Assembly (NCBI RefSeq): GCF_026210795.1
Contig: NC_089433.1
Coordinates: 4,588,001-4,652,000 of the forward strand
Direction: 5' to 3'
Source of the DNA: Rhizophagus irregularis
Lineage: Eukaryota
Length of the DNA: 64,000 bases
The notes under the pieces were generated by a model. The model saw only the letters and a program-made list of their open reading frames with translations. It ran no database searches and had not been told where the DNA came from. A program made the translations under genes and the position numbers. Numbering within the stretch: the first letter of the stretch is position 1; each line of letters starts with the position of its first letter. Positions 1 to 63,481 of the stretch are shown piece by piece.

Positions 1-420
1 TATTATTACTTAGTATCATTATAATATTTACATATAATTTAAGCTAAACTAACTAAATTCTTTATTTAAAAAATTATTTTGTAATTTCCTTTAGATTGTA
101 AGTTATAATTTACTATTTATTTAATTCTATTATTACTTATTATAATAATATTTACATATAATTTAAACTAACTAAATTCTTTATTTAAAAAAATTATTTT
201 ATAGATGGTAAGTTATTTATTTAATTCTATTATTACTTATTGTTATAATATTTACATTTAATTGAAACTAACTATTTAATTTCCTTTAGATGGTAAGTTA
301 TTTATTTAATTCTATTATTACTTATTGTGATAATATTTACATATAATTTAAACTAACTAAATTTTTATTTAAAAATTATTTAATAATATAGCTTGTAAGT
401 TATTTGTAATTTTATTGTTA
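1..420 (+). repeat. Tandem ~85-110 bp units, each an intron plus a 3-nt micro-exon
   Basis: Recurrent unit gtaagttatttatttaattctattattacttat...tttacatataatttaaactaactaaa...tag+NNN, about 4 copies, each containing a CTAAC branch-point-like motif. Confidence 0.85.
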
Positions 421-1999
421 TATATTTTATATTTATTTGTTAACTGTATTCTTTCATTTAAAATTTCTATTACTTTAGTTGGTAAGTTGTGAAATATAGC
501 TTATTATTATTATATATATTTGTACAAGAACTAAGACATATATTATCTTAAATTCCAATTTAAATTTTAGAGTGAGTGTTAATTTTAATCTTAAATTTTG
601 TGTCAATTTTATTATGAACTTTAATTATTTAAATTTATAGATTTGGAAAAAGTGGAAATACAATTATAGATAAATTTATCCTTGAAAAAAGATTAAAATG
701 GATTCCTTATAATAAATTTAAAAATGTTGAATATCTTAATGAAGGAGGATTTGGTACTATATACAAAGCTATTTGGTTAAAAAATAATGAAGATAATAAA
801 GAAGTAATTCTTAAATGTCATAATAATTTAAATGAAAATTTAAATGAATTTTTAAATGAAGTATGATAGTATATTATTTATTTTTTTCAATTTGAATTAT
901 AATTTACTTATATTAATATATTATTATTTTTTATAGTGGAAATATCATGAAAGATGTTTAGATTCAATTGAAATTATTTATTTTTATGGATTTACAAAAG
1001 ATCCAGATACTTTAAAATATATGGTAGTAATAGATTATGCAAACAAAGGTAATTTAAGAGGAAACTTAACAAGAATAATCAAAAATAATTGGGATCAAAA
1101 ATTATATATGTTGTGTGAAATTATTTCTGGACTTAATAGTATACATGAACAAAATCTTATTCATTGTGATTTTCATGATGGTAATATTTTAAATCATAAT
1201 GAGGATAAAATTTATGTTAGTGATTTAGGATTATGTCAGCCTGTAAAATCATTTTTGAAAGAGTATAATATTTATGGTGTTGTACCATTTATGGCACCTG
1301 AAGTTTTAAGAGGCAAATCTTATACTCCAGCTAGTGATATATATAGTTTTTCTATGATTATGTGGGAATTTACATCTGGTACGCCACCATTTAACAATAG
1401 AGCACACGATATTCAACTTAGTTTAAGTATTTGTAAAGGTGAACGTCCTGAAATTATTGAAAATACTCCACAATGTTATGTAGATTTAATGAAAAAATGT
1501 TGGGATGAAGATCCATTAAACAGGCCATCTTCTAAGGAAGTTTTAAAAACTATTATAAAATGGATTGGTCTTCCTTCTAACAAGAAAATTAAAGATATTG
1601 ATAAAGAATTAAAATGTAATATTATGGAATTTATAAATGCACCAATTGGGCATAACATTCTTACTACTGAATCTCATCCACAGGCTTGTTATACAAGTCG
1701 CATACTTGATTTTACTAGTAAAAAATTGAATGAAATTCTTGAAAGTGAAGATTTGAATAGTTGTATAATTAAAGATTTGAAGTCATTAGGTATGTAATAT
1801 AGTATATATAAAAATTAATCTTGCAAATCATTTTTGTGAAATTAATTTATTATTTAATATTAAAACAGATAAAAATACTAGTAAAAAATTGAATGAAATT
1901 CTTGAAAGTGAAGATTCACAAACTTATTATGCAAGCCATTCTTCTACTGGCATAACTGAAGAGTTGGATGATTGTATAATCAAAGATACAAGTAATTAG
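95..1999 (+). CDS. TKL-type Ser/Thr/Tyr protein kinase, 5'-partial, with N-terminal micro-exons
   Basis: Exon 641-860 reads FGKSGNTIIDKFI...EGGFGTIYKA...VILK. Exon 937-1789 has HCDFHDGN, SDLG, MAPE and SDIYSF. A probable duplicated terminal exon lies at 1869-1999. GT-AG introns preserve frame. Putative upstream micro-exons: 95-97, 205-207, 290-292, 392-394, 479-481 and 571. The start lies left of the window. Confidence 0.9.
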
Positions 2000-24859: not shown

Positions 24860-25750
24860 ATAGTGGAATGGAAAACAAGAAGCATCGTTTGGATTAATGG
24901 CGTAAGAATTTTAGAAATTTTACCGACTATGATTTTATTAGAAATTTCGAACATAGTAGATGTATACGCTGTAAAAGAATGTTGACTCATATATGGATTT
25001 GTAGCGCAAAACCTGGTTACTATTGGCCAAATCATTAATCAAGCAAAAAAGAAAGTGAAGCTTCACATTGAAATTAATTGTGCTGCGAGGTTATTTGTTA
25101 TTTTAAATGAGCGCTCAAAAGTTATTTTTAATGATCGTATATTTCATGACTCAATTATATTTGGGAATTAATGATGAAATGTTAAAGAAATGAAATATTT
25201 GGGAGGAAGTAAAGGTATTACAAAGCAAATGAATCGATCGAGTAAAGAAGATCTTACTTTGATTCTGTCATCTCGAATTAGCCCTATAAAAAAAGAAAAT
25301 TCGGAATTTGTCCTGAAAAGTATGGAAAATGTCCAGAAATTTTCCGTGCGTCCGGAAAACATTTGGAAACGGTCACGTTTTGGAACACTTTCCGGACGCA
25401 CAAATTCCAGACATTTTCTTGACACTCCAGAATTTGTCCAGAATTTGTCCAGAATCAAGCGTCCGGAAAATGTTCCAAAACATGACCGTTTCCGAATGTT
25501 TTCCGGACGCACGGAAAGTTTCTGGACATTTTCCATACTTTTCAGGACAAATTCCGAATTTTCTTTTTTTATAGGGTAGTCAACAACGATGGTTAGAATA
25601 TAGTGAGGATCGGAATGAACGTATGAATTAGGGTATTTAGAGAAGCTAATTACTCTAGAAATTTTTCTTTATTTGATTTGTAGTCTAGTTAAATAGGTTA
25701 TTTTAATAGATGGGTTACTTTATTGATTATTAGTATTGTAAGAAATTTGA
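24860..25750 (+). mobile_element. Non-LTR retrotransposon (LINE) ORF2 3' remnant
   Basis: RILEILPTMILL, then in a shifted frame RCIRCKRMLTHIWIC (CCHC-type C-terminal finger). Degenerate, with approximate boundaries. Confidence 0.5.
25282..25576. mobile_element. 295-bp palindromic MITE, copy 1
   Basis: Near-complete foldback CCCTATAAAAAAAGAAAATTCGGAA...TTTTCTTTTTTTATAGGG; TSD TAG (25279-25281 and 25577-25579); close homologue at 59679-59973. Confidence 0.93.
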
Positions 25751-55725: not shown

Positions 55726-57084
55726 TTTTTTTTGTTAATGTAAACTGTTAATGTTTGTTAAGGTTACGAAAAGTAAGTCGGTTTATAAATCAACCAATTT
55801 AGGAAAATTTGAATAAGGCTTTTCTTGGCTTGTGTCATTTGTGTAATATAGATTTAAATGTGAGCTATACAGTCTATACACGTAAAGCATTGTATTCTTT
55901 ATTCGTGATATGATTGTTAATATCACAAAGTTTTTTTTTCAAAAAAAAAAAAGTTTTTTTTTTCATACGCCAACGAAAAAAATACAAATACTTATATTCT
56001 TTATATATAACATTTTACTAATCAAATTTTATTATTATTGTTATTTTTATTGTAATATTGTATAATAATTTAATTTTAAACAATTTTATTAATTGTCTTA
56101 CTAAGATGTATCTAATGATAGTAATTCCATATCTCTATGATTGAAAGGCATAAAGAAAATTAGCCAAATATCAACAAGATGAAAAAAAAAAATTAGCCGT
56201 CTAATCTTTTTTCCGTTTAGAAACTCTTTCTTCATCTCATTGGTGTTCCAAAATTGGTACTCGTTACAATTAAATGTAATACAAACAAAGATCTTTTATC
56301 TCGATTATTCTCAACAAATCAAAAAAATATATATATAATAGCGGGTGCAGTTTTTGTATAAGAATAAATGTCCCTATATATTTCAGGTTTACCATTTTTT
56401 TCAATAATATTTTTCTAGAAATTTCTTTCAATTAATACTAAATATTACAATGCGGTTAACATACAGTAAATATGCAAGATTAGCCAAATTTAGGCAACGG
56501 AACGTGTTAAATTAACACGTTTCGCTTTTATAGGGATTGATGACCTAACTATGGATGAAAAATTCTTAGATTATACGCAAATCAAAACTTTACTCTGTCT
56601 AATTTCACTATGATGGCGACGCATCTGTGTACCCTACCCCTATATATATATATTTCTGAGTCCTGTGCTTATAATGATAAAAAAATAATATTATAATATT
56701 TATAAAGTCATTTGTTATATAATATTTCGGTTATATGAACCGTCATTCTGTCGGCAAAACATTTGTCGGCGACAGGGAAATTTTATGAGTAGAAAATCTA
56801 ATATGCGAACATCTGAAATCATATGGAAATTCTGTTTCGCATTCGATTTAATAACGAAACCCTTTCCTTTAATAATGAAAGAACACGCATGCACCGTTTA
56901 TTTCTTTACACGTCATGCCCGATATGGCAAAAGTATGAATCTTGATAAGACAAGTGGTAGTAAAGAGCATAATATAAATACACGTTAAGTTACGGCACTT
57001 TTTTCAAAAAAAAAAAAATTTTATTCAAAAAAAACAAAGAAATTTCTCTATAAAAAAAGAAGTGAAAACTATTAAAAAGGCAAA

Positions 57085-57790
57085 ATGAAGTTCAATATCT
57101 TCCTTCTCTTTTTGGTTATCTTCTCTGTTACCGCTTTAGCTGTACCAGTTGAATTGAATCATTATTGTAAGTATTTCCATTGTGGTTACTAAAATAATTA
57201 AATGTTAATTTTTTATTTCATTTTAATTAATAAATAGGTGATTATTGTAAGTATTACTCCTGTTCATTTCCGGTTGGTACAAGCTAAATCGAATCAACCA
57301 ACCGGACTGGAAATGAACCGGCCTATTATATTACACTCGATGTTATTATTAACTGAAAATATTAAACTTTAATTTTCCATTTACTTAATTTTAATTAAAT
57401 AATGTATAGACTGTAAGTATTCATCATTGTTGTTATTATTTTATGGTACCTATTTTTGAAAATACTAACTAATAAATTAATAAATAGGCTGTAAGTATCG
57501 GCTTTATATATAATAGTTATTACTGTATTATGTTTTTAAAATATTTAAAATTTAAAATATTTTACCTTTAAAATATATATATATATATACACATTAAATA
57601 CTAGGCTGGGGTAAGTTATTATATTTGATGTTTATTGTTTTAAAACAAATATTAACTTTTTTATCTTTCCTTTTATTTTTAAATAATAGAATGTAAGTGT
57701 TAACATTATTATTACACACAATGTTATTGTTCTTACAAAAATATTAATAAATGCCAATTTTTCTTTTATCACTTAAATAACAAATAGTTT
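57085..57790 (+). CDS. Micro-exon gene encoding a small secreted Cys/aromatic-rich peptide (3' end uncertain)
   Basis: Exon 1 (57085-57166) encodes MKFNIFLLFLVIFSVTALAVPVELNHY. Micro-exons follow at 57238-57246, 57410-57412, 57488-57490, 57605-57610, 57690-57692 and 57788-57790, each flanked by TAG and GTAAGT. Spliced product: MKFNIFLLFLVIFSVTALAVPVELNHYCDYYCCWEF... Confidence 0.8.
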
Positions 57791-57866
57791 GTAAGTATCT
57801 TCATTACCATTAGTATTACAAAAATATAAAAATTTTTTATTTTTTCTTATTAAAACACTAATAAAT

Positions 57867-59664
57867 ATGGAGTCATACCGAGGGCAAGAGGAGTTCGAGG
57901 AACATCTCTTAAAAGAAGTCAAGTCTTTTGTGGGCAAAAATTTTACAAAAGCCAACTCTAGGCATAAAGACGAGTTAGAGGATATTTTCGACAAAATATT
58001 TTTCAGGACGCTAAAAACACATAGGCTACTAGTGGAAATAAGTAATATTACTGGCATAAAAGGTGAAACCATAGAAATAATAGCCAGGAGTATACTGAGG
58101 TTCGCATATAGAGAACATGATAATGATGTCAAAAGAATTGGAAACCAGAATATTCGCCTTCGTTCATGGCTGCGGCAGGCGCAGCAAAAACCTTCAACAC
58201 ATGATACACATCTAGATAAAGAAATAGAATGCGAGTTAAAAACACCAATCAAAAACGTCTCGAAACAAAGAAAAACGCCAAAAAATAAAAAACGTGAAAA
58301 AAAATTAGTTAAGGAAATTGTGCTCCCAACAAAAGTCGATCAGTTATCGATCCAAAAAAATTCTGGGGCTCAAAGTACAACATCACGTGACATATTATTT
58401 TACGACATACCATCAAGATATAGTGAGGAAGAGGTGGTCAATGCCATAAAACAGTTAGGCGAGGTACATAGAATTAGGATCAAAAAACATTACAAATACC
58501 AATCAGTAAGAGCGGACATATCATTATTGGAAGACTATGAGAACTCCTTCTTGAAAGGAGCGTGGAAGGAGAAAGTTTTAATAGGAAGCAACGAAAAAAA
58601 TAAAAAAATCATTGACATTCGTTGGTTCAAAGGAGACAGGACAGTTAAAGATATAAAAGAAAAATGCAAATGGAAAGCTTACAAAGTAATTCGGATGAAT
58701 TACTACCAAGATATAGCGAGAAAAAATTATACTTTTGAGTATGGAAAAATAGCTCGTTTTGGAAATAAAGACAGTTTTCTTGGCATACTTTAAAAATGAA
58801 GATCAGTCGAATAGTGCAATCACTCTGGACGGTGGAATCACAGATCAAGCCTGGATTATTCACGGAAAGCGTCAAGATGGTGTGCCAAAGAAGTCTTCAA
58901 AAGAGGATCTTCCAAAGGCCCTTATCAGTACGGTTCCGAATAATAAAAAAGAAGAGCAGATGACAACAATCATTATGCCAACAACTATTAAAGATATAAC
59001 CACGGAAGAGGTAGTTGATACCGTTAATAAATATAGGAAAAACCTGCTAAATGAAAAGCAAGTTAAAATGATATCGCCTCCACTAAAAGATTACACTTCT
59101 ATGGATAATGTGGTTAGAATCATAGAAGAGTATAGAGAAGAGATAATGGTTGAACATGGAAAGGTGGCATTCAATAATACAATAATGATTGAATCATCAA
59201 AAGAAGATAGTGCTGCTGAGAATATAAGAGTCGGAGACACGAAAAATAATAATAAAGCTAAGGGTGCTTTAACTAAAAACGTTGTCAACGACAAAAAAGA
59301 TAAGTCAGTGTGCACCAAACATGGCGAAAAGATAGTTACCCCAGTGGAATTACATGAATACACCAAAGTCAACGCTGATTGTACTAAAAGACTACCAAAG
59401 AAAAGTGAGTATCCATTTACTCTTTCAAATCGTAATCCATTTGATATAGGTAAAGGTAGTGATTTTACATCATCATCGGATGATGAAGAACACATAAAAG
59501 AAGTCAAGAAGCGTATAAAGAAAAAACAAGGAACGCGCAGTGACGTGGAATACGAAGAGTCGGAAGACGGTTTCAGAGAAGTTAAAAAAGAAAGAAGACC
59601 TTGGGCCGGGAAGCCTGGAAGCAGGATGGGCCGAAAAAAGAAAAAGGGTCAAAACAAAAAGTAG
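57867..59664 (+). pseudogene. LINE ORF1-like RRM protein with a single +1 frameshift
   Basis: RDILFYDIPSRYSEEEVVNAIKQLGEVHRIRIKKHYKYQSVRADI is RRM-like. ORFs 57867-58793 and 58759-59664 fuse (FGNKTVFLAYF) if one A is removed at GGAAATAAAGACA (~58767). Basic C-terminus. Confidence 0.7.
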
Positions 59665-59678
59665 ACTAGGTTTGTTAG

Positions 59679-59973
59679 CCCTATAAAAAAAGAAAATTCG
59701 GAATTTGTCCTGAAAAGTATGGAAAATGTCCGGAAATTTTCCATGCATCCGGAAAACATTCAGAAACGGTCACGTTTTGGAACACTTTCTGGACGCACAA
59801 ATTCCAGACATTTTCTTGACACTTCAGAATTTGTCCAGAATTTGTCCAGAATCGAGCGTCCGGAAAATGTTCCAAAACGTGACCATTTCCGAATGTTTTC
59901 TGGACGCACGGAAAATTTCCAGACATTTTCCATACTTTTCAAGACAAATTTTGAATTTTCTTTTTTTATAGGG
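59679..59973. mobile_element. 295-bp palindromic MITE, copy 2
   Basis: Same length and termini as 25282-25576; TSD TAG (59676-59678 and 59974-59976). Confidence 0.93.
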
Positions 59974-60602
59974 TAGTGTAGAATAATGAGATATACCCAT
60001 GTATGTAAATATTTTTAGATAGGTTGGTGTAGGGGTTAAAGGTGTTGATCGGGGACGGTAGTTGCCTTGACATGGAGAGAATGAGTAGTTTTTAGATTGC
60101 TCATTTTCAATGGGTATATTGAGGTTATTCTACTGCTTATGTTTGTACTAGTACGCGAAATACTAACATAGGTTTTTTTAATCAATAAATATGCATTTGT
60201 CATTGGAAAAAAAAAAGAATAACGAATATTACAGAGCGCCGAGTGAGGCAGTAATATGGTCGATTCCTTTTCAATTCTTAATAATTGTTAATAAAGACAC
60301 ACAGTTTCTTGCTGATTCCTAACTATACATTTTATTATTTATTGTTTATTATTTTTTTAGTTATATACACTTTATTTATTTTCGAGTTTATTAGTTTATT
60401 GATATACTGATCAATACTTTGTCGATCATTTGTCGATCACACACCATAAACTTATATTTATTTCATATACCCTTATCGAATATTATCCTACAATTATTAT
60501 CGATTTCTCATTGATATATTATTACATTACGTTAATAATTGATATTTTATTTCTGTTACTACCTGACGAATCGTATAAAATCAGTAGTGACACTAGCATC
60601 GT

Positions 60603-61986: not shown

Positions 61987-63481
61987 ATGAATGATAATAA
62001 ATTTTTACCAAAATTATCACAAAATTTACTTGAAATATTAAATGATGAAAAATATTATGATATTACTATTGAAGTTGGTAATGACCCTTATGTAAAGATT
62101 TTTCGTGCGCACATGGTCATTTTACATTATCGTTCAACTTATTTGCAAAGAATTTTGTCAACTAGTAATATGGAAAATGATGGAACTTTAACACATATTA
62201 AATTACCGAACATATCACCTGAAATATTTCAAATAATTTTAAGGTAAATAATTTTATAAAACAGATTATATTCATGATAATTCTTTTTATTCATAATATA
62301 ATATTTTTTTATATTTTAGGTATATTTATGGTGGAAAACTTTCTTTAGAAGAATATGATACTCTGGATATAATTAAAATCTTGGTTTCTTCTAACGAACT
62401 TAATCTTCAAGAATTAACCACGTATTTACAATTTTATTTGATTGAAAATAAAACAGATTGGATGGAAGAAAATTTTAGTTTAATATATCAAACAAGTTTT
62501 GAAAATGATTCTTTCTTGGAACTTCGCAAATATTGTATTGATTTAATTTCTAAAGAACCAAATAAGATATTTAATTCCATAAATTTTTCTTCAATTTCAG
62601 AAAATCTTTTGTTTACAATTATTCAAAGTGATAACCTTCAAATGAGTGAAATTCAAATTTGGGAAAATGTTCTTAGGTGGGGAATCGCTCAAAATCTGGA
62701 TCTTCCTTCTGATTTTACAGACTATTCTCAAAATGATTTTAATAATTTAAAGAATACCTTACAACGGTTTATTCCATTTATTAAATTCTACAATTTAACT
62801 TCTAAAGAATTTTTAGAAAAAGTATTCCCCTATGAAAAAATATTTCCAGAAGATTTATATAGAGATTTATTAAGAGTTTATTTAAGTCTTTCAGATCCTA
62901 ATAGCAAACCAAGTAATAATACAAAACTTGGTATAACTAAAGAAAGTAAAAGAACAGTGGACTCAAAAATTATAACTTATCAACATGTTGAATTAATTTC
63001 AAAATGGATCGATAGATTAGAAATTACTGACAAGTTAATTTCTTCATATGAATTCAGATTATTGTATCGTGCATCTCGTGGTGGATATTCACATAAAAGA
63101 TTTCATGAAATTTGTGACAATCAACCTCGCACTGTAACACTTGTTAAAGTAAAGGATAGTAACGAAATTCTCGGAGGATATAATCCACTTGAATGGAAAT
63201 CGGATGAAGGTTTCAGCACTACTAAAGATAGTTTTATATTTTCCTTTAGCAATGAAGAAATTGAAAATTATATTTTAAGTCGTGTAATTATTGAAAAGAG
63301 TGCTATCTACAATAGTCCTAATACGGGACTATCATTTGGTGAAAGTGATCTTAAGTGGAAAATATGGCTTGGACTATGGCTTGGTAATTGTAAAAAATCT
63401 ACTTATGAAAACCCGATTAGAAAAATCGAGGGAAAATTTGCTGCAGAAGAATTTGAAGTATTTCAGATTGTACTTGATTGA
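61987..63481 (+). CDS. BTB/POZ-BACK-TLDc protein (472 aa predicted)
   Basis: Exons 61987-62243 and 62320-63481 join in frame, with the same intron position as the 52433-53982 paralogue. Motifs YDITIEVGNDPYVKIFRAH, YIYGG, LLYRASRGG, ILGGYNP, FEVFQI. Confidence 0.92.

Follow-up and report, generated by a model that had tools for sequence, protein, structure and literature searches.

In the 64,000-nucleotide stretch of DNA analyzed here (hereafter, the window), the forward strand carries at 57085..57166 an exon that opens with a start codon, encodes a predicted 19-residue signal peptide and eight more codons, and closes on a single phase-1 base (82 nt, or 27 codons plus one base). Downstream lies an array of codon-sized exons, four of 3 nt, one of 6 nt, and one of 9 nt, all on the same strand. 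Micro-exon 1 (57238..57246) has 9 nt between a TAG acceptor and a GTAAGT donor, and is followed by micro-exons 2 (57410..57412) and 3 (57488..57490) with 3 nt each, micro-exon 4 (57605..57610) with 6 nt, and micro-exons 5 (57690..57692) and 6 (57788..57790), again with 3 nt each. Introns 1 to 6 measure 71, 163, 75, 114, 79, and 95 nt, their GC content is 14–29%, and internal AG dinucleotides are absent from four of the six and occur once in each of the other two. All seven donors read GTAAGT and all six acceptors TAG. With every exon included, the gene reads as 36 codons with cysteines at positions 28, 32, and 33, and the micro-exons supply 27 of the 109 known coding bases and 27 of the 52 in the predicted mature part. 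A sequence-only reading of this locus had put forward these coordinates, exon sizes, splice sites, introns, and the 36-codon translation, all of which we reproduced.

This micro-exon anatomy is real and lies far above chance. The earlier reading had asked for a null model, on the grounds that such motif clusters might be common in DNA of this composition; they are not. Between 57085 and 57860, YAG-N(3/6/9)-GTAAGT occurs at six sites, whereas 5000 dinucleotide shuffles average 0.009 and never exceed one, and the GTAAGT hexamer occurs seven times, whereas dinucleotide shuffles average 0.21 and never exceed three. Over the whole window, the first of these motifs is found 13 times (mean 1.6 and maximum seven in 150 shuffles), and a three-donor pattern matches three times, compared to none in 100 shuffles.

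Exon 1 had been described as signal-peptide-like, and its composition agrees: it has a hydrophobic core, with a Kyte-Doolittle 7-residue mean of up to 3.7, and alanines at –3 and –1 before residue 20. Our call follows this rule of thumb rather than SignalP. The first eight residues of the exon also occur in a predicted signal peptide in supplement 1 of a secretome paper on arbuscular mycorrhizal (AM) fungi (PMC5293756). It had further been proposed that any subset of the micro-exons could be skipped without a frameshift. The reading frame is indeed kept throughout, but 16 of the 64 possible subsets, those in which micro-exon 4 is skipped while micro-exon 5 is kept, run into a stop codon; the other 48 are stop-free and distinct.

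A Rhizophagus relative and transcripts over the locus

When the 35-residue read-through of exon 1 was compared with 1.84 billion representative proteins, two matches were returned. One of them, the repeat protein P0001, matches in part and in a chance-like manner, and we did not retain it as a family member. The other, P0002, is a hypothetical protein of Rhizophagus irregularis that is 66% identical to the 57085 read-through over the alignment, and its gene model starts with the same exon 1 and continues directly into the adjoining intron. The attribution of the DNA to an AM fungus is borne out by P0002 and by the homologues of a kinase encoded in the window (see below), all of which belong to Rhizophagus. 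Protein searches with P0002 and with alignment A1, at lengths of up to 88 aa, returned P0002 only. There was no Pfam match for the P0002 family and no usable match for the 35-residue read-through in the ESM Atlas, no relatives of the 57085 family turned up in the viral and prokaryotic collections, and the family’s motifs are absent from the five supplements of PMC5293756. A 24-nt stretch of intron 2 (57346–57369) recurs in the intron retained in the P0002 model, a hint that intron units are shared or duplicated among family members.

The sequence-only reading had proposed that the spliced sense product be sought in RNA. Across eight of 24 listed runs (three raw RNA runs and five contig sets), over a stretch that holds no control gene, no sense mRNA of the 57085 copy was found, and the spliced RNA that matched this copy exactly was antisense only, in two runs (X10 and X13). 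The exon-1 bin had zero depth in the 24–30% covered of each of the raw RNA runs X21, X22, and X24, again with no control gene for comparison, and the reads over 56999–57045 in the raw RNA runs were poly-A junk. None of the five contig sets held a contig identical to sense exon 1 of this copy, and X12 held nothing on the gene. The X10 contig matches the minus strand of 57123..57434 with no differences and a CT..AC joint; its intron (57189–57257) overlaps micro-exon 1, and it has no long open reading frame (ORF). The X13 contig, likewise without differences and with a CT..AC joint, matches the minus strand of 57680..58239, running from an insertion described below into the array, with its intron near 57956–58051. 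An X5 contig spans 57354–57902 unspliced. Long ORFs are lacking from the X10 and X13 antisense pieces except for the shadow of the insertion’s ORF, and the antisense RNA was rejected on this ground as the protein-coding one.

A single related contig bears on the splicing of the sense strand. This contig, from run X14 (333 nt, depth 6.5), aligns without gaps to 57091–57151, where 55 of 61 bases agree and six differ, and it extends for 271 bases past the exon-1 match, of which 30 are visible. Read by hand, it stays in frame past the junction, lacks GTAAGT where the donor would be, and encodes cysteine at codons 28 and 32. Eight of the 15 bases past the junction equal those of joined micro-exons 1–3, as against four of 15 for intron 1, and over the two triplets of micro-exons 2 and 3, five of six bases agree with the prediction. 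This is one contig from a run that is only guessed to be RNA, and the X14 gene could itself be without these introns. Most simply, the contig represents spliced mRNA from a paralogue or orthologue, with the first three micro-exons serially included. This related contig, RNA-like and intron-free in the same cysteine register, supports serial splicing in the family of the 57085 gene, and the description of the micro-exons as genuine splice units is likewise supported.

The 3′ end of the gene and a probable insertion

Micro-exon 6 is followed by a perfect GTAAGT donor, and the start of the seventh intron (57791..57866, forward strand) resembles intron 6 (repeat D6, 73% over 40 nt). An AG scan found no YAG acceptor where the sister introns carry one. 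At that expected position, 57867, begins a 308-codon ORF (57867–58793) that overlaps a second ORF on the same, forward strand (58753–59664). These overlapping ORFs, a nested element, a polyA signal (60184–60189), and an A-run (60207–60216) delineate a probable transposon-like insertion at 57867..60217 on the forward strand, the right end of which is uncertain. The nested element is a 300-nt inverted repeat at 59675–59977 with a second copy at 25278–25580 (94%, 118-nt inverted arms). Reads from related elements skip 59674–59973, where the nested element is missing, and diverged copies of the insertion DNA are transcribed. The insertion ORF has no Pfam match and no relatives found in viral contigs, and its leads in the ESM Atlas all fall below 0.9, one scoring 0.86; with no Pfam match and only this weak Atlas lead, we infer the transposon-like character of the element. 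Just beyond it, a 36-nt hairpin-like motif at 60222–60257 is common to several unrelated high-depth contigs in X5, X10, and X12, and for that reason looks like repeat DNA.

Because there is no YAG for donor 7 and the DNA enters the ORF at 57867, neither a last exon nor a stop codon could be assigned to the 57085 gene. The array was also considered as a part of the downstream BTB gene, which was rejected since that gene has its own start near 61988. With its seventh donor lacking a normal acceptor and running into the transposon-like insertion, the peptide obtained by full inclusion is probably incomplete, and its odd number of cysteines (three) suggests that a last exon has been lost. We rank truncation or silencing of the 57085 copy above intactness as the probable state, on the basis of the missing acceptor, the odd cysteines, the multi-copy ORF at the acceptor position, and the antisense spliced transcripts of X10 and X13. 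A last exon might also lie at a distance, on the far side of the insertion. The earlier proposal that this copy makes the 36-codon peptide fares poorly against the lack of a 3′ exon, the probable insertion, and spliced RNA that is antisense only.

A second array and arrays ahead of kinase exons

At the other end of the window, a second phase-1 array occupies 95..570 of the forward strand, with 3-nt exons at 95, 205, 290, 392, and 479 and a 1-nt exon at 570. Its introns are near-identical, and its gene starts upstream of the window. By a phase check, it would join in frame to Tyr/Ser-Thr kinase exons at 641–860 and 937–1797 on the forward strand (PF07714, E=1.7e-33), which match Rhizophagus kinases at up to 90%.

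We searched 4 of the 64 parts of a metagenome collection with a pattern of two consecutive 3-nt exons, which matched 111 stretches (approximately 1900 estimated overall), many of them plain tandem repeats. Eight of 109 loci were picked by eye for a GC content of at most 0.22 and AM-like introns. Three of these eight AT-rich loci match Rhizophagus kinases at 48–58% directly after the array, and five gave no match at 1e-5. No signal-peptide exon was seen in the AT-rich loci, upstream exons being visible in L006, L011, L021, and L074. In L006 (minus strand), L070 (90–1632), and L020 (33–332), up to 17–18 triplet exons stand directly before Rhizophagus-like kinase exons, and the phase-1 products of these arrays are rich in Trp, Tyr, and Asp. 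Judged from the DNA, this type of array is not unique to the 57085 gene and also serves non-secreted kinase genes.

Flanking exons fix phase 1 independently: in L006, L020, L070, and the window kinase (by way of its 1-nt exon) it is the kinase exon downstream of the array that does so, and in L011, L021, and L074 the exon upstream. When the 11 AT-rich arrays, including the window’s two, are read with full inclusion, none of the 64 junctions creates a stop in phase 1, as against 11 in phase 2. Phases 0 and 2 were rejected for the AM-type arrays on account of these phase-2 stops and of the flanking exons that set phase 1. Pairs of non-adjacent exons in the AT-rich arrays create stops in 12 of 300 cases, and the serial order of exons showed no significant advantage over shuffled order (P=0.17). 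The arrays together encode 67 phase-1 residues, the 57085 gene’s own eight included, among which Trp, Tyr, and Phe account for 22, compared to 12.6% in three ORFs of the window (p=1.4e-5), and Trp alone for nine, compared to 1.8% in the same ORFs (p=3.9e-6). Inspection by eye found Ile/Gly/Leu/Met-rich N-termini in approximately 7 of 120 Rhizophagus kinase models (P0022, P0032, P0042, P0045, P0055, P0059, and P0060); these N-termini look like triplets read in phase 0, a probable mis-annotation.

Proposed serial inclusion and its alternatives

We lean, with slightly better than even confidence, toward the view that Rhizophagus has a small family of Cys-rich peptides, predicted to be secreted, in which serially joined phase-1 micro-exons would make up the mature part. 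The 57085 copy would be a member whose last intron probably received a transposon-like insertion that truncated the gene. In such genes, exon 1 would give the signal peptide and stop one base into a codon, and each 3-nt exon would complete one codon and open the next. The product would have a C-x3-C-C core, be rich in Tyr, Trp, and Phe, and presumably be exported and disulfide-bonded. An intron-plus-triplet unit could be duplicated, lost, or mutated with the frame unchanged, and because these units are frame-neutral, the array might serve mainly as an evolutionary dial that adjusts a recognition surface one residue at a time. Such one-residue changes would suit a fast-evolving surface that recognizes plant, microbe, or self. 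Exon skipping could be a minor extra beside serial inclusion, and in the kinase genes of AM fungi the same intron-plus-triplet unit would likewise build the segment that precedes the kinase domain. For the 57085 copy, we infer secretion, a role in recognition, and loss of function. A bolder proposal, which we hold only tentatively, is that a split-codon module found throughout the AM-fungal lineage would place hypervariable Trp/Tyr/Asp-rich recognition segments on secreted Cys-rich peptides and in front of many kinases of the expanded family, where they would be reshuffled by combinatorial splicing in the manner of antibody loops and be missed or mis-framed by annotation.

Alternatively, the micro-exons might be skipped in many combinations to yield dozens of secreted peptide variants, an idea that we find possible but doubtful. 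Each exon is a multiple of three in one common phase, the 48 stop-free subsets are all distinct, and few of the non-adjacent pairs in AT-rich arrays (12/300) create stops, although this scarcity may simply reflect preferred amino acids. Alternative splicing of such a design is reported for Tuber (PMC10197012, PMC4986451, PMC13449251) and for the micro-exon genes (MEGs) of schistosomes (PMC4350168). However, no skip isoform was seen, and the X14 contig fits inclusion of all of micro-exons 1–3. Moreover, the remaining 16 of 64 subsets are nonsense, and skipping a phase-1 triplet would also alter the adjacent residue and would break the cysteine spacing.

That the 57085 copy is intact and expressed, with intron 7 either spanning the insertion or taking a weak acceptor inside it and the peptide ending at or soon after micro-exon 6, seems unlikely to us. 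Candidate acceptors are at hand: the AG at 60216–60217 would bring a phase-1 stop right after micro-exon 6, and the GAGs at 57872 and 57882 lead into open frames, all without read support. With seven perfect donors, six perfect acceptors, and an open frame, the copy also shows no decay. Against this, its other introns are only 71–163 nt long, and the sequence at 60222–60257 looks like repeat DNA. Sense exon-1 reads were also absent from the three raw runs and identical contigs from the five contig sets, a weak point given a stretch with no control gene.

Less probable still, the arrays could have arisen neutrally as intron units duplicated in tandem within AT-rich DNA, being tolerated because they keep the frame and encoding residues without a special role. 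Adjacent introns are alike (repeats D2 and D6, and the near-identical introns of the 95–570 array), as this would require, and plain tandem repeats make up many of the metagenome matches. Yet where the introns are alike the triplets differ, the phase-1 products are stop-free with Trp at 9/67 against 1.8% (p=3.9e-6), and the cysteine register is kept in the diverged X14 member. We give very little credence to the splice motifs being unused, with the 35-residue intron-retained ORF as the true product or the locus as a non-coding antisense unit: the sole database model, P0002, is a read-through and the sole exact-match spliced RNA is antisense, but chance does not account for seven perfect donors spaced as introns would be, the donor motif is missing from the X14 contig, and the antisense pieces have no long ORF except the shadow of the insertion’s ORF.

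Relation to known micro-exon genes and kinases

The 57085 gene had been presented as undescribed in fungi and likened to MEGs alone. Codon-sized arrays have in fact already been described in Tuber melanosporum, where, according to three later sources (PMC10197012, PMC4986451, PMC13449251, citing Iotti et al., 2012), the nank (NACHT-ankyrin) genes carry alternatively spliced codon-sized micro-exons that were proposed to vary a recognition surface. In both fungi, short canonical introns separate a series of 3-nt exons. The Tuber genes encode NACHT and ankyrin domains, whereas the arrays described here belong to a predicted secreted-peptide gene and to Tyr/Ser-Thr kinases; no NACHT or ankyrin ORF adjoins the 57085 array, the neighbors of which are BTB/BACK-TLDc genes and the transposon-like ORF. 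Codons are split in phase 1 here, whereas the NACHT-linked arrays that we fetched, L027 and L044, are clean in phase 0. The Tuber genes have tens of micro-exons in contrast to six in the 57085 gene, and alternative splicing is known for them, whereas the 57085 array is known from DNA sequence.

Schistosome MEGs combine a signal peptide with symmetric micro-exons, have exons of 3–81 bp and introns of up to 5 kb, and are restricted to platyhelminths, according to PMC4350168 (see also PMC10526429). Like them, the 57085 gene opens with a signal-peptide exon and encodes the mature product in tiny symmetric exons, secretion being predicted in our case. Unlike MEGs, it is fungal, with micro-exons of 3–9 nt and introns of 71–163 nt, and whereas most coding bases of MEGs lie in small symmetric exons, only 27 of 109 known bases do so here. 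No sequence similarity of the 57085 gene to MEGs was found, its only credible homologue being the Rhizophagus protein. The gene is built like both Tuber nank genes and MEGs and, as its sequence reads, is a member of neither, with no NACHT, no flatworm homology, and only a quarter of its known coding bases in micro-exons.

Rhizophagus has an expanded family of Tyr/Ser-Thr kinases (PF07714; PMC8647823), and exons of such kinases directly follow the second array of the window and the arrays in L006, L020, and L070. The available portion of that account makes no mention of micro-exons, nor does that of a long-read annotation paper (PMC10234402). No description of micro-exons in Rhizophagus or Glomeromycota was found in the literature within reach, which excludes subscription papers and preprint supplements. 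Codon-sized arrays as such were already known, and what is new against that literature is their split-codon, phase-1 form in an AM fungus, on both a predicted secreted-peptide gene and kinases.

A very large number of kinase genes in AM fungi lack an explanation, and the small secreted proteins of these fungi have been poorly catalogued. If the arrays encode variable kinase front ends and a hidden peptide family, gene models would be wrong at the region likeliest to confer specificity, and secreted micro-exon peptides would be missing from effector lists, as the absence of the motifs from the PMC5293756 supplements illustrates. This would open the question of how a largely clonal symbiont diversifies its recognition proteins. 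The 57085 copy itself may no longer be functional, or may be silenced.

Among 22 hand-picked loci of higher GC content, no stops occur in phase 0, and 31 stops occur at 299 junctions in phase 1. In L044 (2427–4955) and L027 (3365–5974), 20–33 phase-0 codon exons lie downstream of NACHT ORFs. The sequences of these loci suggest that the Tuber-type phase-0 design is widespread in uncultured fungi. Arrays of 20–33 phase-0 codon exons were likewise noted in the higher-GC contigs L043, L045, L073, L075, and L088. L014/L015 (15–3180) holds 45 identical 3-nt units with intron-like spacers of approximately 69 nt, and is either a tandem repeat or a poly-residue exon array. On a quick look, many of the ten pattern matches in viral contigs had stop-codon or repeated triplets.
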